64,000 nucleotides of DNA, taken from contig CP129473.1 of assembly GCA_030583745.1 (NCBI GenBank), forward strand, positions 76,551 through 140,550, given 5' to 3'. A model generated the notes under the pieces. It was not told where the DNA came from, searched no databases, and worked only from the letters and a program-made list of their open reading frames with translations. The position numbers and the translations under genes are program-made. Below are positions 2-24,244 of the stretch, one piece after another (position 1 is the stretch's first letter; every line of letters starts with the position of its first letter). The stretch comes from Minisyncoccota bacterium (GTDB taxonomy: Bacteria > Patescibacteriota > Minisyncoccia > Phycocordibacterales > BOKC01).

Positions 2-1273
2 ATTGGTTATGCCAAAGACAGGTGGCAGGACTTAATAGATTTTTTAAAGAACAAAGGTTTTAAAGAGTCTGAATTGCAGAAAACAGGTCTTGCTAAGAAA
101 ACTGAAGATGGCAAGTTATATGATGTCTTCAGAAATCGAATCATCTTTCCGATTTTTGATAGCGCCGGACGAATAATCGCTTTTTCAGGCAGATTGTTTC
201 CGGAAAAAGAAAATGCGCCAAAATATTTGAATAGTCCGGAGACCGAGTTTTTCAACAAGTCGGAAATTCTCTACGGCTTTGATCGGGCAAAAAACGAAAT
301 TAGGACAAAGAATTATTCAATTTTGGTTGAGGGCCAAATGGATTTGATTTTGTCGCATCAGGCGGGATTTTGTAACACTGTCGCTACCTCCGGAACTGCT
401 TTGACAGAAAAACAACTTCAAAGATTGAAAAGACTTTCGGAAAGAATAATTTTCGCTTATGATGGAGACGCGGCCGGATTCAAGGCAATAGAGCGGGCGG
501 CTAAACTGGCGATTCCTTTTCATATGAATGTCAGAGTTGCCGCTTTGCCGAACGGTGAGGACCCGGCTTCATTTATTGCCAAAGATAAAAACGAATATCT
601 AAAAATCTTGAAAGACTCGCGTCACATAATTGATTTCTATCTTGATAAAATTTTGGAAGCTAAAATGGACAGACGTCGACAAGACCAAGAGATTATGAAA
701 AAAGTTCTGCCATTTTTAAAGCTTTTGCCCTCAAGCATTGAGCAGGCGCGTTTTGTTGCCTCGGTTTCCGAGAGAGTAAACATCCCGGAGGCAGCTGTTT
801 GGAGCGATTTACAAAAGGTTGATCTTGAGCTTGATTCGGTTGAGTCTGAAATCTCGGTTCCGGATAAGTCGTTGACAGATAGAAAATCAAGTATAATGTT
901 GAGACTGGCTGGCATCGCTTTCTGGCTTGATGGCAAAGGACAGAAACCAACCATTTCTGATATTAAAGGCAAGATAGAAGAATTTTCAGATCTGGATTTC
1001 GAGCTTTTTTTAAAGCAGAACGATTCTAAAAAAGACGAGCTTACTTTTGAAGCTGAAGCGTATTTTTCTGATAGAGACGACATTGGAGACATTGTTGAGG
1101 ATTTAATTTTTAATTTGCATGAAGAGGTTTTAAAAAACGCCTTGACCGAGGTCTTTAAAGAAATTCAGCAAGCTGAGAATGGTCGAGATAGAGATAAGGT
1201 TGAGACACTGCTTCTCAAGAGTCAGGATTTGAGCAAAAAAATAAATCAGTTGAAACTGGAAAGACAAAAATAA
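2..1273 (+). CDS. dnaG: DNA primase DnaG (5'-truncated by window edge)
   Basis: The reading frame is open from position 2. The TOPRIM motifs 'EGQMDLI' and 'YDGDAAG' are present, the N-terminal region resembles DnaG ('[22 protein letters not shown]'), and rpoD follows directly in the classic MMS operon order. Confidence 0.9.
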
Positions 1274-10382: not shown

Positions 10383-10402
10383 TTCCGTTTAGGACTTGAT
10401 TT

Positions 10403-11023
10403 TTGTCCGACTTTTGCCATTCTTTAGTAATGGAATTTGAATTTAAAGGTAAAACTCTGTCGTTTGATCCCAATAAGCCGAGAAACCGACCGGATTATTT
10501 GAAATGGATGTCTGACGAAGAGGTAAAAAAGTATCTGGATGGTCGTAAGTTGAATTTTGGCGTCTTAATAGCCAACCTTCTTTATGATAATAATGCTGGC
10601 AATATAATTCGTACCGCCAACGCTTTTGGGGCGAAAGAAATTATTCTCTACGGCCGGAAAAAATTTGATCGGCGGGCAAGTGTTGGCACCGAGTTTTATA
10701 TGAAGTTTAAGCACGTCAAATTTATTGAAGACTTGGATGAAATTTTTTCCGGCTACGACTTGGCGGTGGCGGCCGAAAACACGGAAGATTCAACGACGCT
10801 TAATGAATTTGAATGGGACGTTTCAAAAAAGACCTTACTTGTCTTTGGCCAAGAGAGCGATGGTATTCCTAAAGAAGTTTTGGAGAGGTGTGATTATAAA
10901 GTCCAAATTATCCAATTTGGTAGTGTCCGCTCACTTAACGTTTCAGTCGCCGCCGGAATAGTAATGCATGACTATTGCTTGAAAACCGGCGCACTCGATA
11001 AATTTAAAAAACAAACGTTCTAG
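10403..11023 (+). CDS. SpoU/TrmH-family RNA 2'-O-methyltransferase
   Basis: The SpoU motifs 'NAGNIIRTANAFG', 'LVFGQESDGIP' and 'QFGSVRSLNVSVAAGIVM' are present. Confidence 0.85.
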   Translation: MSDFCHSLVMEFEFKGKTLSFDPNKPRNRPDYLKWMSDEEVKKYLDGRKLNFGVLIANLLYDNNAGNIIRTANAFGAKEIILYGRKKFDRRASVGTEFYMKFKHVKFIEDLDEIFSGYDLAVAAENTEDSTTLNEFEWDVSKKTLLVFGQESDGIPKEVLERCDYKVQIIQFGSVRSLNVSVAAGIVMHDYCLKTGALDKFKKQTF

Positions 11024-11814
11024 AGAAAATTTGCGATTAAAAGCAAGATTCCGAAAAAGATAGCAAAATAACCAAAATTTATTTTTCTCGCTAGTCTAAG
11101 GAGTATGTCAATTGTCAGTATGCCGGCGAGAAAGGAGACGATGAGTGCAACAATGAGTTCTAAAGATACACTGAATGATCTAAAGTTTAAGAAAAGGTTG
11201 CCTAAAAAAACTATAGGTAAACTCAAAAGGAAACTCAAACGCAAAGCGGTTGTGTCATTAAATTTTTTCAAAAGCAGGGCGGAGACTGTCAATCCGGAGC
11301 GCGAAAGTCCCGGAACTACTGATAATCCTTGCATTATTCCCAAGGCAAGACCGTCCCAGATATTAAGATTTTTTTCTTCTTTCAGTCCGGTTTTTTTCGA
11401 GCTTAATTGTAAAGTTGCGGTTATAAAAAGCATCAGAGCGATTAGGGTATTTGCAAAGACACTGCCGAGCTTTAATTTTTCTTCAAACCTACCAATAAAT
11501 TGAAGTAGTAAAAATCCAAAAAGCCCGCTAACCAAGGTGGCTATAAAAATAAATCTAAAAATTTTACGGTCTTCTTCTGAAGATTCTTTCGGACGAAAGG
11601 CGGTTTTGGTCAGATTGAAAACATCTTTTCTGAAATAAACCAAGGCCGAAAGAAAAGTCCCGAAGTGTAAAAAGAGCGCCAACCTGATTAAGTCAACAAT
11701 AGTTTTATCTCCAGAAAAAAAATTGCTTTTTATAGCAACAATCAATCCTTCTGAGCTGATTGGGATCCATTCAGCTAGTCCTTGAGCTAGACCTAAAATA
11801 ACCGCTTCAAGCAT
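11020..11814 (-). CDS. uppP: undecaprenyl-diphosphatase UppP/BacA
   Basis: 'GLAQGLAEWIPISSEG' and 'PGLSRSGLTVSALLL' match the BacA signature. Confidence 0.9.
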   Translation of the reverse strand: MLEAVILGLAQGLAEWIPISSEGLIVAIKSNFFSGDKTIVDLIRLALFLHFGTFLSALVYFRKDVFNLTKTAFRPKESSEEDRKIFRFIFIATLVSGLFGFLLLQFIGRFEEKLKLGSVFANTLIALMLFITATLQLSSKKTGLKEEKNLNIWDGLALGIMQGLSVVPGLSRSGLTVSALLLKKFNDTTALRLSFLLSLPIVFLGNLFLNFRSFSVSLELIVALIVSFLAGILTIDILLRLARKINFGYFAIFFGILLLIANFL

Positions 11815-11903
11815 ACTTAAATTTTATCATAACTTTTTGCTGACTTTGCTTTAAATTACTCGTTTTGTTATAAATATGACAGACAAAGCACAAGGAGAAG
11901 AAG

Positions 11904-12404
11904 ATGCCGAATAGCGAAAATCTGATGGAAATCTTCGAAAGGCAGATAGGGGCTGGTTTCAGGTTTGTGGATAAGGTGGTTAAGATTGATAAGGATGAAG
12001 GAACTATAATCACAACATTCGACTACTCGCTTGAAGACGAATCCAAACACTTCCTGCGCGACCATTTTTTGGGTAGACCGGCCATGCCGCTTTCTCTCAT
12101 CATTGAGATGATGGCACAGACCTGCGGTTTGTTTGTTGCAGGTGTTCTCGGAAACGGCAAGTGTTTCGTTGTCCGTTATGACAAGTGTCAGTCCGGTAGC
12201 GAGCTCGTTACTCCGCCGGTTCAGCTAGTTATCACAGCGAATTTGTTGAAAAGGAGGGGGCGGGGCACTAGAAGCTTATGGATATTTGCCGTCAAGGTGG
12301 AAACTGATCAGGCGAAGAGTGTCGGCCAGGGCGAGATCACACTTTTCGCCGGAGTTGGTTCCTCGAGATCTTCGGAAGAGCTTCAAGACGAGATTCGAGA
12401 CTGA
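11904..12404 (+). CDS. FabZ/FabA-like hotdog-fold dehydratase
   Basis: 'FRFVDKVVKID…DHFLGRPAMPLSLIIEMMAQTCG' matches the FabZ active-site region 'HFPGxPVMPGVLxIEAMAQ'. Confidence 0.7.
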   Translation: MPNSENLMEIFERQIGAGFRFVDKVVKIDKDEGTIITTFDYSLEDESKHFLRDHFLGRPAMPLSLIIEMMAQTCGLFVAGVLGNGKCFVVRYDKCQSGSELVTPPVQLVITANLLKRRGRGTRSLWIFAVKVETDQAKSVGQGEITLFAGVGSSRSSEELQDEIRD

Positions 12405-12410
12405 AATCCC

Positions 12411-12445
12411 TCCCCGCGCCCACAAGGCGCGGGGATTTTGATTTT
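12411..12445 (+). terminator. intrinsic terminator after the FabZ-like gene
   Basis: The hairpin 'tccccgcgcc-cacaa-ggcgcgggga' is followed by 'ttttgatttt'. Confidence 0.7.
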
Positions 12446-12517
12446 ATATAGTCCCTCGGGGCAGAGCCACGAGGTAATGTCGGAATCCTCCGCCAGCTGG
12501 CGAACTACGTCACTTAT

Positions 12518-12760
12518 AAAAAGAAAAAGGCCCCACGCGCGACAGGATGACACGCGGGGGCCGGAGGGCTGGGCGGAAAGAAGGTAGAGGTTGGTTTGCG
12601 ATTCAGGAATCGCTCTAGAACGACTCAACCGTTTCGCTTTACCGCTACACCCGATCAATTTTTTTCATCGGGTGCCGGATTAACCGGAGGCGGCTCCTAT
12701 GGGGGACCGACCGCGACCTTTTTCCGCCCAAGCCCTAGGGAGGGTCTCTAATCTAATATT
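12518..12760 (-). ncRNA. candidate ~240-nt ncRNA (promoter to intrinsic terminator, no ORF)
   Basis: On the minus strand an extended -10 'TGTATAAT' lies at ~12768-12775 with 'TTGCTT' upstream. A GC-rich body follows with local hairpins (CCGGUUAAUCCGG, CCGAUGAAAAAAAUUGAUCGG, GAGCGAUUCCUGAAUCGC). It ends at a strong hairpin 'ggccccacgcgcgacagg…cgcgggggcc' plus a U-tract at 12518-12562. No family was recognised. Confidence 0.35.
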
Positions 12761-12828
12761 ATACATATCCTGTAAAAAAAGCAACTCCAGACTCTTTTTA
12801 AACCTCAATTAGTATCGATAGTAGGATT

Positions 12829-12936
12829 TCAGAAGAGCTGGAAAATCAACCATGCCAAGGAGTAAACAGTGGCACCTATGGCAAATCCGGTGATCTTCCG
12901 CCTGATGATTTCTGATGCACTGTGTGGGGCGTTCAT
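12829..12936 (-). CDS. small hydrophobic peptide (35 aa) with strong RBS
   Basis: 'AAGAGGAGAGAGAA-ATG' gives MNAPHSASEIIRRKITGFAIGATVYSLAWLIFQLF, which has one predicted TM segment. It is below the 60-aa ORF-track cutoff. Confidence 0.4.
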   Translation of the reverse strand: MNAPHSASEIIRRKITGFAIGATVYSLAWLIFQLF

Positions 12937-13010
12937 TTCTCTCTCCTCTTTTATTTAAGGATGTCTTTTGAAGAACACTTGCGATATTGTATTTGAAATA
13001 TTAAAAATTT

Positions 13011-13062
13011 CAAGAGAAAAACCCGCCATCGTGTGCGCCTACAAGTCGCGAGCGATGGCGGG
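13011..13062 (-). terminator. intrinsic terminator (minus strand)
   Basis: The stem 'cccgccatcg…cgatggcggg' is followed on the minus strand by 'tttttctcttg'. Confidence 0.55.
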
Positions 13063-13192
13063 TTAAAGGGACGGGCCGAAGAATTACACTGGCGGAAAGG
13101 GGGATAGACTGGGGTGTTTTTGTCTTCCCCCGCCGTATCGTAGTGGGGGTGGAACGATATTCCGCCAGATTCTTTCGGCCCCTGGTTCCTCT

Positions 13193-13531
13193 TTAGTCTT
13201 CGACGACCCTCCTGACGACTCCATCACAGACCAGCCACTGTTTCGGCAGGTTTCGGTCGTCGTATAGTTCATCAATCCGAACCACCAAGAGGCGGCTTTC
13301 ATCTGCTTTGAATTTGAAAACCGCTACACTGTTTGGTTCAGACGGGAAGTCTCGGCCGTGTTTTTTCTCGTATTCCGAGACGGCCGAAAATGCTGCAGTA
13401 GCACTGTTTTTGACTGTCGGACTCTTTTCGATGAGGTTGATACTTTGCCAGATGACGTGGCCCATTGCCAGTATCAAAATAACGACAATGACGATGTTTA
13501 TCACGATCGTCGGGTTAGATTTTCTTCGCAT
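13193..13531 (-). CDS. membrane-anchored hypothetical protein (112 aa)
   Basis: A strong RBS 'GGGAGGCAAAAATG' precedes the start. An N-terminal TM segment 'IVINIVIVVILILAMGHVIW' is followed by a soluble domain. Confidence 0.55.
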   Translation of the reverse strand: MRRKSNPTIVINIVIVVILILAMGHVIWQSINLIEKSPTVKNSATAAFSAVSEYEKKHGRDFPSEPNSVAVFKFKADESRLLVVRIDELYDDRNLPKQWLVCDGVVRRVVED

Positions 13532-13600
13532 TTTTGCCTCCCGTTCGTGTGTGTTTGTGTACAGAAATCTACACTCTTTATATCATTTTCTAGAAAAAAG

Positions 13601-13658
13601 AAAAACCCGTCCTGGCGGGTGGGCTGGGGGAGATGGGCAAGTGCCCGACCAGGACGGG
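13601..13658 (-). terminator. intrinsic terminator after the DUF167 gene
   Basis: A 10-bp stem 'cccgtcctgg/ccaggacggg' is followed on the minus strand by 'tttttcttttttc'. Confidence 0.55.
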
Positions 13659-13787
13659 TTGAAATGGGGGGCTACGAACCGGGGAGTTGGAATGGGCGAC
13701 ACAGTCGAATTAGTGTGTCGTTTTCCCACGGCGCCCCCTTTCTAAAGTGATAATAACAAATTATGTTTTAAAGACAAGTGGGGTGTG

Positions 13788-14066
13788 TCAGAAACTGATC
13801 AAGACAATTTTGTTTGGTTGGCGCTGACCTTTTGTAATTTTTAGCTTTCTTATAGGTAGGTTTAGATGTTCAGCAAGGAGAGCTAGCATTTTTTTGTTGG
13901 CCAAATTATTTTCCGGTTTTTCTCTGACAAAACACTGAAATCTGCCTTCTGAAATTTTTTCCAACTTGTCTTTTTTTGCGTTGGTGAAAACCTTTACTTT
14001 AAGATGCATATGTTCACATTTTAACTCAATTTTGATATTATCTTTTGGTTCTTTGATATAAAACAT
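13788..14066 (-). CDS. DUF167/YggU-family protein
   Basis: 'KVKVFTNAKKDKLE…NNLANKKMLALLAEHLNLPIRKLKITKGQRQPNKIVLI' matches the YggU pattern (…GKAN.ali.fla…v.iv.G…K.v.i). Confidence 0.75.
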   Translation of the reverse strand: MFYIKEPKDNIKIELKCEHMHLKVKVFTNAKKDKLEKISEGRFQCFVREKPENNLANKKMLALLAEHLNLPIRKLKITKGQRQPNKIVLISF

Positions 14067-14141
14067 TCCGGCGTAGCTCAGTGGTAGAGCAAGCGACTGT
14101 TAATCGCTGGGTCGTAGGTTCGAATCCTACCGCCGGAGCCA
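14066..14141 (+). tRNA. tRNA-Asn (GUU)
   Basis: It folds as a cloverleaf with acceptor UCCGGCG/CGCCGGA, D-arm GCUC…GAGC, anticodon stem AGCGA/UCGCU with loop CUGUUAA (GUU), T-arm GUAGG-UUCGAAU-CCUAC, discriminator G and an encoded CCA. Confidence 0.9.
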
Positions 14142-14180
14142 ATAATAAAATCCTTCCCTTTTTGGGAGGGATTTTATTAT
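14141..14180 (+). terminator. long hairpin immediately 3' of tRNA-Asn
   Basis: 'aataataaaatccttccc-ttttt-gggagggattttattatt' forms an ~18-bp stem. Confidence 0.6.
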
Positions 14181-14390
14181 TGGCTCCCGAATTAAAACCT
14201 TCGCAAACTTTTGAAATTATTTTGCCAAATTTGATACACAAATCCAAAAAGCGAAATCTGAAATGATGCGCCCCGCCACTATTTTTCTGGGGTAAAGGAG
14301 GCGGGGCGATGGACTCGCCCGCGCGGAGGAGGGGTCTGGGGAGGAATCCGCGCGGGCTTCGGCTTTCTTTTTCGAAAGAATTGGCGGCTA
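14180..14390 (+). repeat. inverted repeat copy A (211 bp)
   Basis: It is ~97% identical (7 mismatches) to the reverse complement of 16305-16514. The internal hairpin 'gcgccccgccac…ggcggggcg' is present. Confidence 0.9.
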
Positions 14391-14468
14391 CAAATTGAAG
14401 AAAGAAGAAATTCATGTTAGTATAGTTGTGAGGGTTAAGTTCAACGCTCATACTTATACTATCATACT

Positions 14469-14681
14469 ATGGAAAGTAAGAACAACAGACAAATTGGGGA
14501 TAAAATAAAAGCCATGCGCACAAAGCAAGGATTGACGCAAGACGCTCTTGCGAGAAAATGCGATATTCCCTATACAACACTGACAAAGATTGAATCAAAT
14601 GTGATAAAAAAACCCTCAATTCAAACAGTTACCAAGATTGCCGAGGGGTTAGGAATAAGTATTGACGATTTAATTAAATAA
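14469..14681 (+). CDS. XRE-family HTH transcriptional regulator
   Basis: 'IGDKIKAMRTKQGLTQDALARKCDIPYTTLTKIESN' is an HTH_3 helix-turn-helix. Confidence 0.85.
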   Translation: MESKNNRQIGDKIKAMRTKQGLTQDALARKCDIPYTTLTKIESNVIKKPSIQTVTKIAEGLGISIDDLIK

Positions 14682-14682
14682 C

Positions 14683-15282
14683 ATGAATTCAATTTGTATT
14701 TTTGGAGACAGTACCGCTTGGGGTGCTTGGGATATGAAGAAAGGTGGTTGGGCAAATCGTCTATGGCTTTACGCTGGTAAGAAAACTGATGGTGAATGCG
14801 AAATTTACAATTTAAGTATTTCTGGTGGCACAACAGAAACGATACTTGAAAGGTTTGAGTCCGAAGCGAAAATCCGCGAAGCGGACGCCCTCATTTTCCA
14901 GTCCGGCGGCAATGATTCCTATCTAAAAGGCAAGAATGGCCCCAATCAAATTCCAGTTGATCAATTTAGGAAAAATCTGCAGGAAATAATCAGGAAAGCC
15001 AAAAATATCACACCAAACATAATTTTCATCGGCTTCAAAAATGTTGACGAGACAAAAACAATGCCGGTCTCATGGAAAGATATTTACTACGTCAACGCCG
15101 AAATCAAAAAGTACGACGAGATTATGAAAGATGTTTGCAAAGAAAACAACATTCCGTACTTGGATATTTTTGGCCTTCTCAAAAATGAGGATTTTGAGGA
15201 TGGTCTTCACCCCAATACTTTAGGGCATAAGAAAATTTTTGAGAAAGTGAAAAACTTTCTTGAAGAAAATAAATGGATATGA
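14683..15282 (+). CDS. SGNH/GDSL hydrolase
   Basis: Block I 'ICIFGDSTAWG', block III 'SGGND' and block V 'DGLHPN' are present. Confidence 0.85.
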   Translation: MNSICIFGDSTAWGAWDMKKGGWANRLWLYAGKKTDGECEIYNLSISGGTTETILERFESEAKIREADALIFQSGGNDSYLKGKNGPNQIPVDQFRKNLQEIIRKAKNITPNIIFIGFKNVDETKTMPVSWKDIYYVNAEIKKYDEIMKDVCKENNIPYLDIFGLLKNEDFEDGLHPNTLGHKKIFEKVKNFLEENKWI

Positions 15283-15602
15283 ATACGAAGAATGTAAAAT
15301 TTGTAGTTTTTGTTCCGCTTTCGCACGCTGATATCGTACGACAAGCGCTCGGCAAAGCCGGAGCAGGCAAAATCGGCAACTATGACTTCTGCTCATTTTC
15401 TTCTCGCGGAATCGGCCGCTTTCGCGGAAACAAAAAGACAAACCCCGCTATCGGCGAGGCAGGAAAATATGAGGTGGTAGAGGAAGAACGAATTGAGGCA
15501 GTCGTGCCACGAGAGATTTTGGGGGGAGTCATTGAGAAAGTGAAAAGCGTCCACCCATACGAAGAAGTCGCTTTTGATATTTACCCGCTAGAAAACTACT
15601 AG
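15273..15602 (+). CDS. NIF3-like small protein (C-terminal 'HPYEEVAFDIYPLEN' motif)
   Basis: The 'VHPYEEVAFDIYPLEN' terminus is typical of NIF3/YqfO-family C-termini. The protein is only 109 aa. Confidence 0.5.
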   Translation: MDMNTKNVKFVVFVPLSHADIVRQALGKAGAGKIGNYDFCSFSSRGIGRFRGNKKTNPAIGEAGKYEVVEEERIEAVVPREILGGVIEKVKSVHPYEEVAFDIYPLENY

Positions 15603-15605
15603 ATT

Positions 15606-16307
15606 ATGGCAACAATTCACAAAAAAGTTTGGCGAGAATACTTTGAGAAAATTATTTCCGGCAAGAAAAAGCTGGAGTTGCGCCTTGCCGATTTTGAGAT
15701 AAACGAGGGTGATACTTTGATTTTGGAGGAATGGGACAAAGATAAAAAAGAATATACTGGCAGAAAATTTGAAGCTGTTGCTACCTATATTCTCAAAACC
15801 AAAGACCAAACTTTTTGGTCGCAGGAGGAAGTAGAAAAGCATGGTTTTCAGATTATCCAATTTGAGCCGAAAGACAGCCTTGCTCAACGTCCGAAAGTTG
15901 GTGTTGGCGTGATGATTTTGAAGGAAAATAAAATTTTGCTAGGAAAGCGAAAAGGTTCGCATGGCGAGGGCGAGTATGCCTTCCCCGGCGGCCATTTGGA
16001 ATACATGGAATCTTTTGCGGATTGTGCTCGGCGCGAAGTGAATGAGGAATGTGGAATTGAGATTGAAAATATCCATTTCCAATATTTGGCGAATATCATA
16101 AAGTACGCGCCGAAGCACTATACGCATATCGGTCTTGTGGCAGATTGGAAAAGCGGTGAGCCAAAAGTTTTAGAACCGGAAAAATCAGAATCGTGGGGTT
16201 GGTATGAAATAGACAACTTGCCTCTACCGATTTTTGAGATGTGCAAGTTGGCTGTTCAATGCCACAAGACCGGAAAGAATTATTTGGATGTTTCCGATTT
16301 GAAATAG
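15606..16307 (+). CDS. ASCH-domain / NUDIX hydrolase fusion protein
   Basis: The N-terminal ASCH-like part is 'KVWREYFEKIISGKKKLELR'. The C-terminal Nudix box is 'GGHLEYMESFADCARREVNEECGIE'. Confidence 0.8.
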   Translation: MATIHKKVWREYFEKIISGKKKLELRLADFEINEGDTLILEEWDKDKKEYTGRKFEAVATYILKTKDQTFWSQEEVEKHGFQIIQFEPKDSLAQRPKVGVGVMILKENKILLGKRKGSHGEGEYAFPGGHLEYMESFADCARREVNEECGIEIENIHFQYLANIIKYAPKHYTHIGLVADWKSGEPKVLEPEKSESWGWYEIDNLPLPIFEMCKLAVQCHKTGKNYLDVSDLK

Positions 16308-16514
16308 CCGCCAATTCTTTCGAAAAAGAAAGCCGAAGCCCGCGCGGATTCCTCCCCAGACCCCTCCTCCGCGCGGACAAGTCCGTCGCCCCGCCTCCTT
16401 TGCCCCAGAAAAATAGTGGCGGGGCGCATCATTTCAGATTTCGCTTTTTAGATTTGTGTATCAGATTTGGCAAAATGATTTCAAAAGTTTGCGAAGGTTT
16501 TAATTCGGGAGCCA
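16305..16514 (-). repeat. inverted repeat copy B (210 bp)
   Basis: It is the reverse complement of copy A. Its outer end 'aattcgggagccaa' mimics the tRNA-Asn 3' end. Confidence 0.9.
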
Positions 16515-16618
16515 AGAAACTAGATACGAACTCATTTTTTGAATATGAGAGTGTTCGCTCCGCCTTCGCTAAAGCTATGACGGACACGCCGTCTAGCCCC
16601 GAGAGTGGCGGGGCTGTT

Positions 16619-16645
16619 GAGGCACAGCAAGGAAATTCCTTGATA
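16619..16645 (+). promoter_or_regulatory. 27-bp motif copy 1 with palindrome CAAGGA-AAT-TCCTTG
   Basis: 'gaggcacagcaaggaaattccttgata' repeats exactly at 17306-17332. Each copy sits ~50-80 bp upstream of a consensus promoter. Confidence 0.6.
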
Positions 16646-16696
16646 TTATGTCATACGACAGGTTGTTTGAGTTTCGAGATTCACGGTAACCCATAC

Positions 16697-16725
16697 TTGA
16701 CATAATCCATGTAATGGTGTATACT
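16697..16725 (+). promoter_or_regulatory. sigma-70 promoter (TTGACA-17-TATACT)
   Basis: This is a perfect -35 with 17-nt spacing and a near-consensus -10, upstream of the 16837 gene. An RBS 'AAAGGAG' precedes the ATG. Confidence 0.7.
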
Positions 16726-16836
16726 GGTATCAGATTCTTAGTCGTATGACTAAGTCGTCTCTTGCACCGAAAGGTGGGAGGTAAGGGAGTATGTGGGTTC
16801 TCCATTTAACCCATAGTTCAATGAAAGGAGTGTCGT

Positions 16837-17241
16837 ATGACACGCAATAGAATCATCAACGCCCCGTCCAAGTTCGACCTCAGCATCGCCTTCTTCGATC
16901 GGCCAAATCCCGAGCAGCTCGGTGGCCGTCGGTCGGTGACCTTCACCATCGAGGGTCCCAGCTGTCCGAACGGCCAGCGCCAGATCGAAGTCGTCATCAA
17001 CCACATCTCGTGGGAAGACGGCTCCGGTGAGAGCTGGTGCTTCGAGGGATACTGTAAGACCGATGTCGGCCAGCCTCAAAACTCGACTGCCGAGGTCAAG
17101 GGTTGGTTCCGGACTTCGGACCGCAAGGGTTGGATCAACATCGACGCGTCTGCTCAAAGCAATACGAGCGGGACTGCTGGTCAGGGTGACTCTGGCCTTC
17201 GCAACGTGATCGATCAGATCGCCACGCAGCGGAATCAGTAA
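16837..17241 (+). CDS. GC-rich hypothetical protein (134 aa)
   Basis: The gene is ~58% GC with its own promoter, RBS and terminator. No family was recognised. Confidence 0.6.
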   Translation: MTRNRIINAPSKFDLSIAFFDRPNPEQLGGRRSVTFTIEGPSCPNGQRQIEVVINHISWEDGSGESWCFEGYCKTDVGQPQNSTAEVKGWFRTSDRKGWINIDASAQSNTSGTAGQGDSGLRNVIDQIATQRNQ

Positions 17242-17256
17242 GCGTTGAGAAATTCA

Positions 17257-17296
17257 GGGCGACCAAGGCAATAGCCAAGGTCGCCCTTTCTCTTTA
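17257..17296 (+). terminator. intrinsic terminator
   Basis: The stem 'agggcgacc…ggtcgccct' is followed by 'ttctcttt'. Confidence 0.65.
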
Positions 17297-17305
17297 TTTA
17301 TACTC

Positions 17306-17332
17306 GAGGCACAGCAAGGAAATTCCTTGATA
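17306..17332 (+). promoter_or_regulatory. 27-bp motif copy 2
   Basis: It is identical to 16619-16645. Confidence 0.6.
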
Positions 17333-17359
17333 CGCTGTTATTGGGATATTACGCATTAC

Positions 17360-17388
17360 TTGACAGTATTCGTATAGTATGCTAGCAT
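17360..17388 (+). promoter_or_regulatory. sigma-70 promoter (TTGACA-17-TAGCAT)
   Basis: It lies upstream of the 17432 gene. An RBS 'AAGGAAAGGAG' precedes the ATG. Confidence 0.55.
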
Positions 17389-17431
17389 CTATATTAGACA
17401 CAAACACTGCAACCAAGGAAAGGAGTGATAA

Positions 17432-17671
17432 ATGCGTAAGTTCACACTTCACTGTCTCGGCGGAAAGACCGAGGGAGTCGAAGGGACAGACATCGCCGAC
17501 GCTTGCCGTAGGGCTGGCATCGGTGCGGGAGACCTTCCTGCTCTCGACTACTTCGAGGAGAAGGGTGAGAAGACCCAGGTCGCTGGTGCATCCAGTTCCT
17601 GTGGGTGCTGGTATCACGCAGAAGAAGGAACTGCGTGCCAGCACGACCTCGAGGTGGTTGGGCTCAAGTAG
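17432..17671 (+). CDS. GC-rich Cys-containing small protein (79 aa)
   Basis: The gene is ~60% GC. The product has 6 Cys, including 'SSSCGCWYH'. It has its own promoter, RBS and terminator. Confidence 0.55.
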   Translation: MRKFTLHCLGGKTEGVEGTDIADACRRAGIGAGDLPALDYFEEKGEKTQVAGASSSCGCWYHAEEGTACQHDLEVVGLK

Positions 17672-17678
17672 CTCTCTC

Positions 17679-17728
17679 CGCCCCGACAAAGAGATTCGTC
17701 TCTGCGTCAGGGGCGGATTTCTTTTTAT
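17679..17728 (+). terminator. intrinsic terminator
   Basis: The stem 'ccgccccgac…gtcaggggcgg' is followed by 'atttctttttat'. Confidence 0.65.
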
Positions 17729-17898
17729 GGAATTAGTTCTGAAGAATAGCACTTAGAACCATCTCTAAAATCCCACTAAACTGCAATTCACTCTTTATCT
17801 TCCTCCAATTTGCAGTTCTGAACTTGTCCAGCAAGGGGAGCCATTACAAATCGAAGTAAAATGTCTTTTTATTTTCATTTTTGCTAATATAGATCAGT

Positions 17899-18759
17899 AT
17901 GAAAAAAACTATAATTATATTAATTTTAATTTTTATTATCGGCGGGATTTGGTGGCTCTTATCGAAAGAACAAAATCCATTACCAAGTTCATCTCAGACT
18001 TACTCATCGGAAGAATTTGTATTATCTTTTGAATATCCAAACGAGTATTTTATTAACGAGGTAAACATGGATACCGGCGAAAGAGAGAGGTATGCAATTG
18101 TGATATTTGAGGATAATCAATTTAATCGTGATTTGGTTGCTGGAAAAATCAAAGAAACTGATTCCCCGCCAACTATTACAATCAGTATTTTCCAGAATAA
18201 TCTGGACAACTACACCGCCAGGAGCTTTGTTGAAGGAACTAATTTCTCAAACTTTAAACTCTCTGACGGAAATATAGAAGAGATTAAAATCGCTGACGAA
18301 ACGGCATTAAAATATAAAGCTGACGGACTTTGGCAAAGTTATAATGCCGTAGTTGCCAGACCAGATTATGTCTATATGTTTACCGTCTTCTTTAACTCGC
18401 CTGAAGATAAACTGGTTTCAGTCTTTGAAGATCTCTTAAAGACAGTGGAATTTAGAACTGAAACTCCGACTTCGGCTGATAACGCCCCTCCGGGAAGCAT
18501 TCACAACTTACCACTACCAGAAGCTGTCTCTAAGGTAAAGAAGCTTGTTGCCGAAACTTATAATGTGGAGGAAGGGAAAGTCATTGTTATGACTGCATTT
18601 GAAAAAGAATGGACAGATTCCTGTCTCGGCCTTGGTGAAGCTCATGAAAGCTGTGCTCTAGTAATAACTCCGGGATATGAAGTGGCAGTCCAAGCTGGAG
18701 GAAAAAGTTACACCTATCGAACTGATATAAACGGAAGTCAGATAAGATTAGAGAAATAA
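17899..18759 (+). CDS. secreted/membrane-anchored protein with conserved 2-Cys C-terminal domain
   Basis: An N-terminal signal anchor is present. The C-terminal 'WTDSCLGLGEAHESCALVITPGYEVAVQAGGKSYTYRTDINGSQIR' is paralogous to the C-terminus of the 26293..26688 protein. Confidence 0.7.
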   Translation: MKKTIIILILIFIIGGIWWLLSKEQNPLPSSSQTYSSEEFVLSFEYPNEYFINEVNMDTGERERYAIVIFEDNQFNRDLVAGKIKETDSPPTITISIFQNNLDNYTARSFVEGTNFSNFKLSDGNIEEIKIADETALKYKADGLWQSYNAVVARPDYVYMFTVFFNSPEDKLVSVFEDLLKTVEFRTETPTSADNAPPGSIHNLPLPEAVSKVKKLVAETYNVEEGKVIVMTAFEKEWTDSCLGLGEAHESCALVITPGYEVAVQAGGKSYTYRTDINGSQIRLEK

Positions 18760-19126
18760 AGTTTTGTCTCGTCCTATCCCAGCGCTAATCCGCCAGCTGG
18801 CGGAACGGGCATAGGACGAGACATCAGGGAAAACTTTGTTGCAGAAGTGTCGGCTCCGCCGACTCTTTGCACGACTCGCCTCCTCATCCCCGTGCTTTTA
18901 GCACGGGGATGAGGAGGCGAACTACAATAAAAAACTTGCTTAATTTTTCAAATAATTTTAAAAATCTTAAACTTCTCAATCTCTCTTTTGATCTTCCTCT
19001 AGGTTGCAGTTTTCCTTCAATAAATTCAGGATAAAATAACTCATCTAAGCACAGGATCAAGCCAAAACAAAAGCGCCTTTCCAGCGCTTTTGTTTTGGCA
19101 GAATTGTAATTTATTTTAAGTTTTTT

Positions 19127-19375
19127 CTACCTTCGTATTGCTTTAACAATCCAAATAAGGACGACTGCGCCGAGAAGCGCTACGAGAAAACTGTAGATAT
19201 TGAAGCCACCTACGCCAGTTTCTCCAAAAAGACTCATAAGCCAACCGCCGATAACTGCACCAACAATACCAACAACCACGTTGAGGATGATGCCTTGTTG
19301 AGCATCGGTTTTCATAATAAGAGATGCGATCCAGCCGACAAGCCCGCCAAATACAATCCAGAGAATAATTCCCAT
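19127..19375 (-). CDS. GlsB/YeaQ/YmgE-family transglycosylase-associated membrane protein
   Basis: '[20 protein letters not shown]…[11 protein letters not shown]' is the typical repeat of this family. Confidence 0.8.
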
Positions 19376-19568
19376 ATATTTATTTCATTAAATTACTATT
19401 AATAGTTGTGCTGTGAACACAAAATATATGCCGAACAATCTATATGAATATTACAAATGAATATTACAGAAAGTTGAGATGATTGTAATTGTTTGTGTAA
19501 TACAACCTTAGTCGAGTCGGCTCCATTTGTAGGTCACATTTATTAAAAGTTAATGTTTGTAAAATATT

Positions 19569-19799
19569 ATGACAACAGTAATTAATACTCCTCCAAACAG
19601 AGAACGTGCTGATGGTGGTGGTTGGGCTTTATCCGTTATTATGCTAATTGTGGTTATCGGAATTGGTGTGTTTTTCTGGCTAAATTTTCGCGACACTTCA
19701 ACAGCGCAAACCCCAGAAACAATGGACACCTCGACCAACATAAGCGTCACACTCCCGAGTGCAAATACTCTAGCGCCGGAGACCGCCCAGTTAGAATAG
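19569..19799 (+). CDS. small membrane protein
   Basis: It has one TM segment 'WALSVIMLIVVIGIGVFFWL'. Confidence 0.3.
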   Translation: MTTVINTPPNRERADGGGWALSVIMLIVVIGIGVFFWLNFRDTSTAQTPETMDTSTNISVTLPSANTLAPETAQLE

Positions 19800-19811
19800 T
19801 TACTAAATTAA

Positions 19812-20093
19812 GTGGAAACATTAGTAAAAGCAGATATTTTTTTCTTCATTGCCTCTATTGCGACTATAGTATTAACAATACTGATTTCTTTCCTTCTATT
19901 TTATCTAATAAAAGCTGGAAAAAATTTGTATAGGTTATCTGAAGTCTTGAAAAGTGGGTTTAAAGAATCGGAAGAATTTGTCGAGGATTTGAAAGATCGA
20001 CTCGAGAACAATGTTGTCTTTCGATTCTTTTTTCCCCCAATTCGCAAAAATAAAAAATTAATGAAAAAAGATTCTGCAAGAGATACGGATTAA
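19812..20093 (+). CDS. small membrane protein
   Basis: It has an N-terminal TM hairpin. Confidence 0.35.
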   Translation: METLVKADIFFFIASIATIVLTILISFLLFYLIKAGKNLYRLSEVLKSGFKESEEFVEDLKDRLENNVVFRFFFPPIRKNKKLMKKDSARDTD

Positions 20094-20135
20094 AAAGATA
20101 CTTAACGGTTCTTTACTAAATTAAAACAAAAAGAT

Positions 20136-20519
20136 ATGGCAAATAAAAAGACAGAAGAGACGTCTAATACATTAAAATACACCGCAATTGGAATAAGTTT
20201 GGCCAGTCTTGCTGCTGGAGCTTATTTTTTCTTTGGACCAAAAGGAAAAAAACATCAAAAGCACGCCAAAGCTTGGGTAATTAAAATGAAAGGTGACATT
20301 ATAGAAAAATTAGAATCAGCAAAAGAAGTTACAGAACCAATTTATCACGCCATCATCGACACGGTTGCTTTAGACTACAAGAAAAAAATAAAAGATAGCC
20401 AAGGAGACATAGCCGAAATTGTAGATGATTTAAAGAAACAATGGAAAAATCTTCAAAAATCAGTTAAATCAAAAACAAAAAATTCTACTAAAAAGAAAGC
20501 TGTGGTAAAAGAAGCTTAA
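20136..20519 (+). CDS. hypothetical lysine-rich protein with one TM segment
   Basis: The ORF has a plausible start. No family was recognised. Confidence 0.45.
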   Translation: MANKKTEETSNTLKYTAIGISLASLAAGAYFFFGPKGKKHQKHAKAWVIKMKGDIIEKLESAKEVTEPIYHAIIDTVALDYKKKIKDSQGDIAEIVDDLKKQWKNLQKSVKSKTKNSTKKKAVVKEA

Positions 20520-20625
20520 CCTCAAATGTTATCAACTTAATCAACGATGAAAGCCGGCTCTCAATTAACAACAAGTGAGAGACGGTTTATCTAAACAGAA
20601 AATTATTAAATAATATGAAAAATCT

Positions 20626-23532
20626 ATGAGAAAATTTTTTTCGTTTCTAAGAGATTTACCGGCGCCATTTATTGGCACCAGAACTCTTTTTGGAAAATTA
20701 GTTCTATTGGTCGCAATTTTTTCTTTACTGGCTGTTGCTTCTATTTTCGGAATTTTTAGTTTACAGAACGTGACTGCGCAAGGGTCTATAAATTCAGAAA
20801 ATCAAATAGAGAGGGATGGAAGTAGTAACTTAGACGTAGAATGCAAGGACCATGGCTTTGATTTTGGTATAGCAAAATGGGAGTGGGAGGATGAATCTTG
20901 GCAGGTTGAAAACAACCCCCCCTTTCCTCTAGCCGATTACAATACATTTGTGTCCGGAGACGATCAAGTGTCTGATTGGACATCTGATCCTATCGCTGCC
21001 GGTGTTGTTGCCAAAACTGCAACAGATTCTTATGTTTTTGACGGTGGAATATCAGGCCAGATAAATAATACAGACACAGGAAACCATGATATTAGTCATA
21101 TAACTTTCTGCGGTAATGAATCTGAATCAGAAACTCAAACTGCAACCATCATTGCCCATAAGGTCGTCTGCGATTCAGAAGAGCTTCTACCAAATTTAGA
21201 AGAGCGTTCGCCAAATATAACAATTAATAATATAACCTCTACTACTGCAAGTACTTTCGCTTCTGGTACCGATGGCTGTGAACTTGTAGAAGACTGGGAC
21301 TTTGAATATAAAATTACTGATGATCAAAGCAATCCGGGTGGCAACACTGTTGGCCCTAAAGGTGGCGACTGGACTACTTTCACTAACACGACTGAAATTC
21401 CCATTGACGACTTATCTCTTATTCAACTAAGAGAAGTTTTGCCGTCTGGTTATATTCCTTTCTCTGATAGTGATGATGGTGTTTCTGCTGAATTTTACTG
21501 TCGCGTAGATGTCTCTGTCTATGACAGTTGGAACTATGACAATTGGGAGTTTATAAAAAATCCGCAAGACAAGGAGACATATTATTGTGTCGGTTTCAAT
21601 GTGCCTAAACCAAGCACAGATAACGACCTCACGATAGTTGGTACTAAAATAATGTGTGATTCTGAAACTTATTTACCAAACTGGGGCGATGGAAGCTCCG
21701 GTCCGATTACTGCAACTACCGCGACAGACTGGCTTTCTGAAGGAGATAATAGCGAGCACTGTCAGATAGTGCCTTGGGACTTTGAATGGTCTCCAGCTGA
21801 CATTACTAACCCAGGTGATAATCAAGGATTGGTTGGGGGCGACTGGACTCAATTTAGCGGTTCAACTACAATTTCTTCTCTGGAAGACATTGGCGATAAG
21901 ATCTGGGTTAGAGAAGACTGGAATAACACTCTAGTGCCGTTCACCGGCTTGAACACTGATCAAGACGAAAGCGCTGAAATCTACTGCCACACCGATGTCT
22001 TGCACTACGATAATTATGACTTTATTGTTAATCCTGAATTAGGGGAGACCTATTACTGTGTTGCTTGGAACGCACCAGCTGAAGTAAAAGAACCTTTGAT
22101 TTGCGAACCGGGCGTTAATCTTCTGATTAATTCTGGTTTTGAAGAACCGGTGGTCAATAACAGCGCTGGTTGGGATATCTTTGATTCAGGCACTCTTGGA
22201 CTTGGTTGGATAGTAAAGTGGGTTTCTGATTTTGCTGGTGCTCCAGAAATAGCCAAACTAGAGCTTCACCGCGGATTAAACGGATGGCTCCCTTCGGCCG
22301 GCAATCAATACGCCGAGCTTGATACTGACTGGGACGGTCCCGACGGTAGTATAAACGGTGAAGAAGCTTCTGTATCTATCTATCAGAATATTCCTACTGT
22401 TAGTGGCAAAACCTACAATCTCTCTTATGATTTCTCTCCTAGACCAGACACCCCGACCACCACCCAGAATGTGCTGGAAGTTTTGATTGATGACTCACTC
22501 TTAGACACTCATACAGCTGTAGGTCTGTCGCAAACTTCATGGACTTCACATTCCCTAAATTTTACCGGAACCGGAGAGCCAACTAAGATTGAATTCAGAG
22601 ATGGGGGCACGCCAGATTCGCTAGGTACATTTCTTGATAATACAAGTTTAATCTGCGAAGAAGATTGTAAAGAAACTATCGGGACTATCTCAAGTAATAG
22701 TCAGACAGAAGTTACTAATATAGTCTTTGCTTTAGATGACCCCGATGCTACTCCTGATTATTCAGCACTCCCTGTCTCTGTTGTTACGGAAATTCAAACT
22801 CTTGGAGACGGTGTCTGGGCGGCTGATGTTGGTGATCTTGAAGCAGAATGGATATGGTCTAACGACCCTTACGACCCTGACTGGGAAGTAGATAAATGGG
22901 TAACTTTTAAAAGAGTATTTGAAGTTTCTGGCATTCCTCAAGTTGGCACTTTAGAGATTGCTGCTGATAATTCTTATGAAGTCTGGATTAACGGAAATCC
23001 GGCCGGCTCCGATTCTTCTGAAAATAACCATTCAGTAGCTGACTCTTGGGACATTACGGGTCTTCTAGTTGACGGCTCAAACACTCTTGAAGTTCGCGTC
23101 AAAAACTGGGCTCTACCCGGATCTGCCCAAGAAAGTAATCCGGGAGGTCTCCTCTACTCATTGTCTTGGGGGGCCGAAAATTGCGATAATAGTGACGACG
23201 AAGAAATTGATCCTCCTAATAGTGGCGGAGGAAGTGGTGATGGTAATTCTGGTGGTGGTTCTTCTTCCAGCAGTCGCTCCGGTGATTTTAATCGGGGTGG
23301 CGGAGGTGGCAGCTTCTTACCGTCCGTAGCCGGAGCATTTACGGAAGGAGCATTTACACAGTTCCCAGAATCACAAATCTTGGGGGCAACAATTGGTCTT
23401 CCTAACACCGGCCGGGCAGAAGAAAATTTCAAAAACTTAGTATTCGTTTTTACTCTCATCTTAGGAACACTGATCTTGCTTACTCTGAATTATCAAGTTC
23501 TTAGAAAAATTAAAACTAAGAAAAGTATTTAA
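20626..23532 (+). CDS. large LPXTG-anchored surface protein with tandem ~150-aa repeats and Gly/Ser-rich stalk
   Basis: An N-terminal signal/TM segment is present. Two repeats share 'CDSE..LPN…WDFE(Y/W)…GGDWT.F…YC..DV..YD…ETYYCV'. The C-terminus is 'LPNTGRAEE' plus a hydrophobic segment and a basic tail. Confidence 0.85.
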   Translation: MRKFFSFLRDLPAPFIGTRTLFGKLVLLVAIFSLLAVASIFGIFSLQNVTAQGSINSENQIERDGSSNLDVECKDHGFDFGIAKWEWEDESWQVENNPPFPLADYNTFVSGDDQVSDWTSDPIAAGVVAKTATDSYVFDGGISGQINNTDTGNHDISHITFCGNESESETQTATIIAHKVVCDSEELLPNLEERSPNITINNITSTTASTFASGTDGCELVEDWDFEYKITDDQSNPGGNTVGPKGGDWTTFTNTTEIPIDDLSLIQLREVLPSGYIPFSDSDDGVSAEFYCRVDVSVYDSWNYDNWEFIKNPQDKETYYCVGFNVPKPSTDNDLTIVGTKIMCDSETYLPNWGDGSSGPITATTATDWLSEGDNSEHCQIVPWDFEWSPADITNPGDNQGLVGGDWTQFSGSTTISSLEDIGDKIWVREDWNNTLVPFTGLNTDQDESAEIYCHTDVLHYDNYDFIVNPELGETYYCVAWNAPAEVKEPLICEPGVNLLINSGFEEPVVNNSAGWDIFDSGTLGLGWIVKWVSDFAGAPEIAKLELHRGLNGWLPSAGNQYAELDTDWDGPDGSINGEEASVSIYQNIPTVSGKTYNLSYDFSPRPDTPTTTQNVLEVLIDDSLLDTHTAVGLSQTSWTSHSLNFTGTGEPTKIEFRDGGTPDSLGTFLDNTSLICEEDCKETIGTISSNSQTEVTNIVFALDDPDATPDYSALPVSVVTEIQTLGDGVWAADVGDLEAEWIWSNDPYDPDWEVDKWVTFKRVFEVSGIPQVGTLEIAADNSYEVWINGNPAGSDSSENNHSVADSWDITGLLVDGSNTLEVRVKNWALPGSAQESNPGGLLYSLSWGAENCDNSDDEEIDPPNSGGGSGDGNSGGGSSSSSRSGDFNRGGGGGSFLPSVAGAFTEGAFTQFPESQILGATIGLPNTGRAEENFKNLVFVFTLILGTLILLTLNYQVLRKIKTKKSI

Positions 23533-23594: not shown

Positions 23595-24212
23595 ATGAAA
23601 AGAAAAATTATCTTTAAAAATATTGTTCTTTTGGTAATGGTCTTTGTTATTGTTCTAATTTTTATCTTTCAAAGTAATAAAGACAAGCGATCGCCTGTTG
23701 TTGTTCTGCCAGCGCCACCTACAACAGAATCTCTTTCAGAATCAGAGTTTGGCACCGGATATCCCAAAACTATAATTATTCCTTCTGTAGAAGTTAGGGC
23801 TAGGGTTGAAAATGTGGGTGTTACAGAAAGTGGTAATATGGATGTACCAGAAGATTATGACGATGTCGGTTGGTTTCGCCATGGTGCAAGACCAGGATCA
23901 CCGGGTTCGGCTGTAATTGCCGGACATTTGGATACCGGACGAGGACAGCCGGCGGTATTCTACAATCTGTCGGGAATAAAAATAGGAGACGAGGTTTTTA
24001 TTGAAGATGACACAGGAGAAGTTTTGAGATTTGTTGTAAGTGGATATAGGTTGGTAGATTATGAAAATCCGCCCGATGATCTTCTTAGAGAAATTTTTTC
24101 AGCAGAAGGAGAGAGGTCTCGGTTGGTTTTGATAACTTGCGATGGGGACTGGGTGCCGGAAGAAAAAACTTACACTTCCAGATTTATTGTTTTTGCGGAT
24201 CTTGTTGTTTAA
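23595..24212 (+). CDS. sortase (transpeptidase)
   Basis: An N-terminal TM segment is present, with active-site His 'VIAGHLDT' and catalytic 'LVLITCDG'. Confidence 0.85.
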   Translation: MKRKIIFKNIVLLVMVFVIVLIFIFQSNKDKRSPVVVLPAPPTTESLSESEFGTGYPKTIIIPSVEVRARVENVGVTESGNMDVPEDYDDVGWFRHGARPGSPGSAVIAGHLDTGRGQPAVFYNLSGIKIGDEVFIEDDTGEVLRFVVSGYRLVDYENPPDDLLREIFSAEGERSRLVLITCDGDWVPEEKTYTSRFIVFADLVV

Positions 24213-24244
24213 TTTCTGCCAACTCAAAAACCTAGGCGCATTCA

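Follow-up and report, generated by a model that had tools for sequence, protein, structure and literature searches.

In an island 3' of a tRNA-Asn gene in a Minisyncoccota bacterium, two small GC-rich genes lie side by side, each preceded by the same palindromic 27-mer, and the question this locus raises is whether they form one regulated module or arrived separately. They belong to a 64,000-nucleotide (nt) stretch of contig CP129473.1, hereafter the window, whose numbering is used for all coordinates; L-numbers denote homologous loci from other genomes or contigs. Gene A (16837..17241, + strand) is an open reading frame (ORF) of 134 amino acids (aa) and gene B (17432..17671, + strand) one of 79 aa, with GC fractions of 0.585 and 0.592, respectively, against 0.406 for the window as a whole. 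An initial annotation had taken them for an imported, co-regulated pair of orphan genes under a shared operator. Our best explanation, to which as a whole we assign a probability of about 0.5, is that A and B are two unrelated monocistronic cassettes, each running from promoter to terminator, that were acquired horizontally and sit in a strain-variable island. Cassette A would consist of a consensus sigma-70 promoter, a 105-nt structured leader, the 134-aa gene and a terminator. Cassette B would consist of a promoter, a short unstructured leader, the gene for a 79-aa protein with a phage-associated N-terminal domain, and a terminator.

Two separately recurring units

The gene A unit of the window is ~85% identical at the nucleotide level to those of L001/L002, L005 and L006, and this identity is confined to the interval from the -35 box to the T-tract of the terminator; the flanks are unrelated among these loci. 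The gene B unit has counterparts in L098 and L099, where similarity begins at the -35 box, promoter B is kept and the flanks are again unrelated. Overall, both genes recur elsewhere at ~85-97% nucleotide identity in unrelated surroundings. Close relatives of gene A sit amid housekeeping genes of differing kinds, and no recurrent ORF neighbour of gene A was found across 56 loci. In 55 other genomes gene A is present and gene B is not, and the sister strain L066 carries gene B without gene A, with other cassettes at the gene A position. Since the GC-rich gene A subclade has diverged by ~10% at the nucleotide level and its members share no neighbouring genes, we infer recent horizontal transfer. 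The recurrence of discrete units with unrelated flanks, together with the differences between near-identical strains in this region, bears out the imported origin proposed in the initial annotation. The lack of a recurrent neighbour, the composition of L066 and the separate promoter and terminator of each gene speak against the co-regulated two-gene module. An association of gene A with tRNA genes was considered and set aside: a tRNA lies within ~3 kb in 19 of 55 loci, which by our own estimate is roughly what tRNA density predicts.

Promoter A (16697..16725, + strand) reads TTGACA-17-TATACT and matches the consensus at 11 of 12 positions. Promoter B (17360..17388, + strand) reads TTGACA-17-TAGCAT with a TG extension and matches at 10 of 12. 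The two ranked first and joint second among promoter-like sites in a 5-kb scan. Both genes have the ribosome-binding site GGAG 6 nt 5' of the ATG. Terminator A (17256..17300, + strand), which closes the unit conserved across genomes, and terminator B (17677..17726, + strand) are each a hairpin followed by a T-tract, with hairpin energies of -23.9 kcal/mol (z -7.0) and -27.1 kcal/mol (z -5.4), respectively. Each gene is thus framed by a predicted sigma-70 promoter and a predicted intrinsic terminator. The presence of these elements, the positions of both ORFs and the GC content of the genes had been given correctly in the initial annotation, which had erred in the background GC (~38%; the window is 40.6%) and in counting six cysteines in gene B, which has five.

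Two small neighbouring genes of foreign composition might be a toxin/immunity or secreted-effector pair, as had been suggested. We consider this very improbable. The genes form separate transcription units with strong terminators, A and B are never neighbours elsewhere, and the sister strain has B without A, so that the co-transcription and co-occurrence of small genes typical of type II toxin-antitoxin or toxin/immunity pairs are both lacking. Scans of either gene against PADLOC, Pfam, PHROGs and NCBIfam returned no match, and reading the sequences by eye revealed no obvious signal peptide in either protein.

The initial annotation had named an overlapping antisense structured RNA as a possible cause of the GC richness that would refute its reading, and in that case the stretches might not be genes at all. 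Long opposite-strand ORFs are indeed present, as expected of GC-rich DNA. However, substitutions between gene A and its close relatives fall mainly at third codon positions (12/4/25, 8/5/20 and 12/5/30 at first, second and third positions), which shows that the GC-rich stretch is coding, and the clearest gene B comparison gives 5/7/23. Distant protein homologues, down to ~30% identity, retain invariant motifs, the AlphaFold2 (AF2) models are moderately to fairly confident (predicted local distance difference test, pLDDT, of 78 for A and 72 for B), and Rfam holds no match. The substitution pattern and the homologues contradict an antisense RNA as the cause of the GC richness, and we hold that reading to be hardly credible.

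Neither gene is an orphan, as both had been called. A hypothetical protein annotated in a Candidatus Paceibacterota metagenome-assembled genome, on a contig of 691,769 bp, has the same sequence as the gene A product. There are 46 word-indexed homologues, and profile searching extended the family to 1,750 representative clusters at E<=1e-3, with 703 at 1e-10. Homologues occupy 55 loci in species-representative genomes, most of them labelled Patescibacteria (Paceibacterota and Uhr-, Nomura-, Zambryski-, Kaiser-, Doudna- and Yanofskybacteria); some third-party annotation (TPA) assemblies bear other taxonomic labels. By sequence similarity, gene A is a member of a very large, unnamed, Patescibacteria-specific protein family. 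The family core spans ~95 aa and contains the near-invariant motifs GPSKFDL, EDGSGESW and KGW(F/Y)xTxxRKGWI. The AF2 model has seven strands, one N-terminal helix and one C-terminal helix. Foldseek searches of this model against the PDB and BFVD gave nothing at E<=1e-3, the best hit being CBF-beta at a template-modelling (TM) score of ~0.35, and PDB sequence searches, single and profile, gave chance matches only. The GC content of the gene A coding sequence is above that of the flanks in 47 of the 55 loci, by a mean of 5.7 points, and the GC fraction at third codon positions is 0.75 for the window gene. Neither gene A nor its leader was found in IMG/VR viral contigs.

Gene B has 17 homologues, and 17 further viral loci (IMG/VR contigs) carry its N-terminal domain. 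This domain comprises the first 44 residues (KFxLHWLGGKxExVEGxDIADACRRAGIGxGALxALDYxEE) and also occurs as stand-alone proteins of 45-60 aa and in hypothetical proteins of Gordonia and Mycobacterium phages or prophages and of a Xanthomonas jumbo phage. Only the gene B subfamily has the C-terminal CxC..H..CxH motif. Foldseek of the gene B model against the PDB gave nothing at E<=1e-3. The 5' untranslated region (UTR) of gene B is short and unstructured. L060 (3270-4300) holds a GC-rich unit of two genes, an 88-aa cysteine-rich ORF followed by a gene B homologue (74% aa identity); the unit is located just 3' of a tRNA, and its consensus promoter is followed by a ~125-nt 5' UTR with a long hairpin.

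The structured leader of gene A

The 105-nt 5' UTR of gene A is better conserved than the coding sequence and shows visible compensatory changes. The structured leader (16731..16848, + strand) extends through the first four codons and folds with a z of -3.4 relative to shuffles. Its P1 hairpin (16737..16754, + strand), CUUAGUC-GUAU-GACUAAG, pairs 16737-16743 with 16748-16754 around the loop GUAU at 16744-16747. The P2 hairpin (16758..16781, + strand) varies in length and has a GNRA or UUCG-type loop; all nine of its pairs have changed on both sides. An H-type pseudoknot follows (16786..16815, + strand), in which GGAG at 16786-16789 pairs with CUCC at 16800-16803 in the loop of P3, itself formed on the + strand by 16792-16799 with 16808-16815 and covarying at 8/8 pairs. 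The last element (16824..16843, + strand) consists of the Shine-Dalgarno (SD) sequence AAAGGAG, with its GGAG at 16827-16830 (+ strand), and the start hairpin GUGUC-GUAU-GACAC (+ strand), which pairs 16830-16834 with 16839-16843 around the loop GUAU at 16835-16838. The A and U of the AUG (16837-16839) lie within this loop and the G closes the stem.

Covariance model (CM) R1, built from nine sequences and a hand-drawn structure in which the pseudoknot helix was not included, found 49 matches in the 418 kb made up of the window and the homologous loci, all on the + strand. The sole match in the window scores 136 bits. Forty-eight of the 49 are directly 5' of gene A homologues; the 49th is L016 2508-2616. 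Of the cells in the alignment of these matches, 93.8% are paired, compared with 65.9% after shuffling, and none of 500 shuffles attained the observed value; 31 of 33 pairs have changes on both sides, and sliding the partners by 1-3 columns lowers pairing to 35-51%; this alignment was fitted to the CM and hence leans toward the modelled structure. Two independent checks support the structure. RNAalifold on a separate MAFFT alignment of 40 sequences recovered P1, P2, P3 and the start hairpin and showed compensatory changes at 20 of 23 pairs. In addition, the pseudoknot helix, which lies outside the CM, pairs in 88% of cells and covaries at all four pairs: the variants are GGAG/CUCC, GAAG/CUUC, AGGG/CCCU, GGUG/CACC and GAUG/CAUC, one pair being GC in 16 sequences and AU in 15, and 30 of 36 sequences have complementary strands where permutation gives 11.2. 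At five loci the pseudoknot and P3 are missing and P1, P2 and the start hairpin are retained.

A promoter of the form TTGACA (with at most one mismatch)-16..18-TANNNT ends 1-19 nt, commonly 5-8 nt, 5' of the leader in 35 of 44 loci. Since the promoter ends just before it, the leader is taken to be the whole 5' UTR. These features identify it, in the generic sense, as a conserved structured 5' leader with a predicted cis-regulatory role, which had been overlooked in the initial annotation. An Rfam 15 scan of the whole window at gathering thresholds returned just three tRNAs, and a scan of 16550-17780 at E<=10 returned nothing within the leader. In 10 diverse homologous loci scanned at E<=1, the only overlap was with sau-53, at chance level (L023, 26.4 bits against a gathering threshold of 100, E 0.4). 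No description of the motif was found in the literature searched for RNA motifs of the candidate phyla radiation (CPR).

Some loci have further RNA features. L016 contains tandem leader copies (2508-2616 and 2872-2979), the first of which precedes an unrelated, coiled-coil-like ORF of ~60 aa that has its first six codons (MTSNDN) in common with the downstream gene A paralogue. Sub-threshold Rfam matches near gene A loci include a group I intron at L033 3750-3960 (36.6 bits, gathering 50) and a hammerhead HH9 at L023 1809-1879 (30.2 bits, gathering 52).

How might such a leader act? The P1 and start hairpins are alike (YC-GNAU-GR), with ten identical nucleotides between them in the window, and variant loops coincide in both hairpins: GGAU in L012, L041 and L044, GCAU in L026, and GUUAU in L027. 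A hypergeometric test on the GGAU coincidence, calculated by hand, gave P ~0.01, to which the GCAU and GUUAU coincidences add. That loop identity and not complementarity is kept argues for a common trans factor or receptor rather than for loop-loop pairing. Kissing between P1 and the start hairpin was rejected as well: wobbles allow GUAU to pair with itself, which the co-varying GGAU and GCAU cannot do. An upstream ORF starting at an AUG in P1 was likewise discarded, since the length of P2 varies and neither frame nor stop is conserved. Complementarity between the 3' strand of the pseudoknot and the SD region is present in 22 of 36 sequences, slightly more than the 16.7 +/- 2.0 obtained by permutation (P ~0.009). 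The leader contains no terminator, and control is therefore most likely translational.

We propose that the leader is most likely a translational cis-regulator, perhaps an autogenous one. The transcript would start at the conserved AAUUCC, and the leader would govern translation initiation of gene A. A trans factor would bind the twin GNAU hairpins and stabilize the start hairpin that occludes the AUG, and the CUCC anti-SD strand would alternate between two partners, the SD-mimicking GGAG in the pseudoknot and the genuine SD. The most likely trans factor would be the gene A protein itself, giving an autogenous feedback that travels with the cassette. We favour such an operator over a small-molecule riboswitch tentatively, at somewhat less than even odds, because the leader is tied to one family, travels as a unit and has twin look-alike hairpins. 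It is limited to gene A, is co-inherited with it and overlaps the SD and AUG. Several observations weigh against the proposal. The loop co-variation amounts to about five events, and five loci (L011, L029, L030, L045 and L055) are discordant. The family is not consistently basic, with isoelectric points (pI) of 5.2-9.9, a median near 8 and 5.8 for the window protein, and the invariant EDGSGESW is acidic. The gene A model matched no known RNA-binding fold in the PDB or BFVD. Finally, the conserved unpaired AAUUCC, GUCGU and AUAAGG and the pseudoknot are equally typical of a small-molecule aptamer.

The last of these points leads to a riboswitch, in which P1, P2 and the pseudoknot would form an aptamer for a small molecule or ion linked to gene A function, and the ligand would set whether the CUCC anti-SD stays in the pseudoknot or pairs with the SD/start region. 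Riboswitches usually serve several gene families. Here the motif accompanies one protein family (48 of 49 matches, the 49th adjoining a member), and the sole other ORF linked to it is the L016 neighbour; the pseudoknot and P3 are dispensable in five loci, and an expression platform has no obvious need for a start loop that co-varies with the P1 loop. The pseudoknotted architecture, the strongly conserved unpaired nucleotides and the heavy covariation suit a riboswitch, as do the above-chance complementarity of the pseudoknot 3' strand to the SD, the absence of an in-leader terminator, which points to translational control, and a gene A protein with no clear signs of binding RNA. There are also precedents for orphan riboswitch candidates that accompany just one gene of unknown function, such as the yjdF motif (PMC4793209). 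On balance we consider a riboswitch possible and rather doubtful.

Another candidate function, for which no specific ligand would be needed, is that of a passive stabilizer, a processing element or an RNA thermometer that melts the start hairpin. 5' hairpins at the transcript start are known to protect mRNAs, and the hairpins here sit right at the predicted transcript start; the start hairpin is just 5 bp long, and the minimum-free-energy fold leaves the AUG and SD partly accessible. Three helices with a pseudoknot, conserved single-stranded nucleotides and co-varying twin loops nevertheless exceed what a stabilizer or thermometer needs, which makes such a passive role improbable.

The junction repeat and the variable island

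The second shared feature of the two units is the palindromic repeat. Copy 1 (16619..16654, + strand) begins with the 27-mer GAGGCACAGCAAGGAAATTCCTTGATA at the left edge of cassette A, and copy 2 (17306..17341, + strand) lies between cassette A and the gene B unit. The 27-mer is identical at 16619-16645 and 17306-17332, where shuffles give an expectation of 0, and similarity extends to 36 nt at 89%. Its core is a perfect 7-1-7 palindrome, CAAGGAA-A-TTCCTTG. That an identical palindromic 27-mer lies 5' of both promoters had been noted correctly in the initial annotation.

Homology with the sister strain breaks at the edges of this repeat. At copy 1, homology with L066 stops exactly after ...CCTTGATA, and at copy 2, homology with L066 and L063 begins at (A)GGCACAGC. 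No further copies of the 27-mer were found in the 64-kb window, including near the XRE gene, or in viral contigs. A metagenome scan with the 20-nt core hit 12 contigs: ten are unrelated coding sequence, as by chance, and the other two are L066 and L070. The homologues of genes A and B in other genomes have the promoters and lack the 27-mer. Because homology breaks at the site edges and the homologues lack the site, we conclude that the repeat belongs to the island of the source species and marks cassette junctions.

The organization of the sister strain is consistent with this. The island starts ~100 nt 3' of tRNA-Asn, and its flanks in L066/L070 are 96-99% identical to window 10185-14078 and 18969-23373. 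In L066 the tRNA-Asn is followed by ~100 nt of shared sequence and by site copy 1 with a left flank identical to that of the window. A 1.9-kb segment with three other ORFs comes next, then the half-site GAGGCACAGCAAGGAAA, which ends at the palindrome centre, a variant site and a full site. These are followed by a 0.8-kb segment with a different ORF of 143 aa, read by eye as NYN/LabA-like, and by another site and the gene B unit. L066 lacks both gene A and the whole XRE-containing segment (window 14146-16507), and three independent indels in all separate these 96-99% identical strains.

In the initial annotation the 27-mer had been read as an operator common to A and B, on which a single regulator such as the neighbouring XRE protein would act to control both genes. 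A perfect 7-1-7 palindrome is typical of operators of dimeric helix-turn-helix proteins, the repeat lies 5' of both promoters, and an XRE gene is present at 14469-14681. That part of the proposal stands; the regulatory part is weakened by several findings. The 27-mer is 51 nt 5' of the -35 box of promoter A and 27 nt 5' of that of promoter B, and this unequal spacing places it in no fixed register with the promoters; it overlaps neither and the two positions are not in helical phase. L066 keeps at least three sites without the XRE cassette, the site-free homologues of A and B keep their promoters, and the XRE gene has no copy nearby. Some cassettes preceded by the site in L066 lack a recognizable promoter, and the site is found there as tandem partial copies as well. 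The operator overlapping its promoter and the co-occurring regulator that characterize XRE repressor-operator systems are thus not found here, and we regard a shared operator as unlikely. Two other functions were tried and rejected: as a promoter, the 27-mer has an internal TTGATA without a usable -10 at the right spacing, and as a terminator it has a weak stem and no T-tract.

The 27-mer is more likely a site of cassette insertion or exchange than an operator, judging from where homology breaks. Against such a site stand the lack of a recombinase among 10 ORFs scanned (74-10382 and 23595-30964, within ~17 kb of the island), which encode a primase, RpoD, a DsbA-like protein, an exonuclease-like protein, HisRS, a bPH-domain protein, a sortase, an AI-2E transporter, a methyltransferase and VanY, and the known occurrence of the 27-mer in the source species only. 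Moreover, two other island indels are flanked by different short direct repeats, which makes recombination at short homologies, with no dedicated enzyme, another possibility.

Several other features of the island were observed. An inverted repeat (IR) cassette at window 14135-16518 carries the XRE gene (14469-14681), a GDSL gene (14683-15282), an unnamed ORF of 109 aa and an ASCH-NUDIX gene (15606-16307), with inverted repeats of 214 nt. The sister strain lacks this insertion, at whose two ends, 14135 and 16508, the 3' end of tRNA-Asn (GGAGCCAA) is repeated in direct orientation; the sequence occurs a third time, inverted, near 14180. The cassette has the look of a small, possibly invertible element that integrated at a tRNA 3' end. 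In L066 (3943-4594, corresponding to window 14100/14101) the tRNA-Asn anticodon loop is interrupted by a ~570-nt group I intron (RF00028, 50.8 bits, 4297-4541) with an HNH-type ORF (3996-4343); the tRNA-Asn of the window has no intron. The segment at window 17726-18968, absent from L066 and L063, contains an ORF of 286 aa (17899-18759) with a hydrophobic N-terminus and no family match, and is flanked by an imperfect direct repeat of ~20 nt, TCTTCCTCCAATTTGCAGTT near 17796 and TCTTCCTCTAGGTTGCAGTT near 18996. A second repeat family appears in L066, where the 31-nt direct repeat TTTTTTGATTGGAAAAACCGCGTAAATTGTG at 6672-6702 and 7347-7377 flanks the ORF read by eye as NYN-like. The assemblies of L095-L097 and L063/L064 break ~145 nt 5' of gene A or ~220 nt 5' of gene B, as would fit variation among strains, or repeats, where cassettes join. 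In L001 (4516-4560), ~340 nt 5' of the gene A promoter, AAGGATATTTCCTTGAT with GGCACAG 20 nt on resembles a permuted junction repeat; its frequency is near chance, and genes for large serine recombinases lie on both sides of this locus.

Known systems and significance

The leader shares features with two groups of regulators. Like the autogenous operators of the MS2/Qbeta coat proteins, E. coli thrS and ribosomal-protein leaders, it has a start-codon hairpin beside the SD and is tied to one protein family and inherited with it. The two look-alike hairpins in one leader recall thrS, whose operator has two anticodon-arm mimics. In contrast to these systems, RNA binding by the gene A protein is a hypothesis, the protein is not consistently basic and its fold matches none of theirs, and the leader has no sequence or structure match in Rfam. 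With the preQ1-II and SAM-II/SAM-V riboswitches it has in common an H-type pseudoknot near the SD, SD-like and anti-SD-like strands and, as predicted, translational control. It differs from such pseudoknot riboswitches in that its pseudoknot is dispensable in five loci and, again, in the lack of an Rfam match. As with the yjdF motif (PMC4793209), the RNA is attached to a gene of unknown function.

The junction repeat in turn invites comparison with integrons. Directly repeated, imperfectly palindromic sites at every junction between small, strain-variable cassettes resemble integron attC sites and Vibrio chromosomal integrons, and as in the latter the repeat is homogeneous within the species. 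However, the site is 27-36 nt long and lacks GTTRRRY, whereas attC sites are 57-141 bp with an R''/L''/L'/R' arrangement; the 10 scanned ORFs and those of the IR cassette include no IntI or other recombinase; cassettes A and B carry their own promoters and terminators, whereas integron cassettes are mostly promoterless; and there are just 2-4 sites, known from one species. No IntI with attI/Pc was thus found among the ORFs scanned, and the repeat does not have the attC architecture. The region also resembles tRNA-adjacent islets, as it lies directly 3' of tRNA-Asn, contains three strain indels and includes one element that duplicates the tRNA 3' end. Unlike in tRNA-adjacent islands, no integrase was found among the ORFs scanned and the units are single genes of 0.4-2 kb rather than islands of many kb. 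The literature searched contained nothing relevant on a cassette array of such a kind.

The existence and conservation of the leader are observed, and its mode of regulation is proposed from sequence comparison. A more far-reaching idea is that the leader represents a new class of regulatory RNA limited to CPR/Patescibacteria, with a decoy copy of the start hairpin and an SD-mimic pseudoknot, and that the repeat marks a miniature cassette array that has no integrase or uses an unknown recombinase; we think it unlikely that both parts hold. If they did, the leader would gate a family of ~1,750 protein clusters by a logic unlike that of described riboswitches and operators, and the array would amount to an integron-like capture of self-expressing genes 3' of a tRNA in ultra-small bacteria.

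CPR/Patescibacteria make up a large share of bacterial diversity. To our knowledge, almost nothing is known of their gene regulation, and few of their lineage-specific families have a functional handle. A covariation-rich RNA absent from Rfam, together with a large unnamed family, provides a defined RNA, a defined protein and a testable hypothesis, and the ligand, should the leader prove to be a riboswitch, would give a clue to what the gene A family does. The strain comparison further indicates that self-expressing units of one gene each are exchanged in these reduced genomes where a short palindromic repeat marks the junctions, which bears on how symbiotic ultra-small bacteria may acquire accessory genes without obvious mobile-element machinery.

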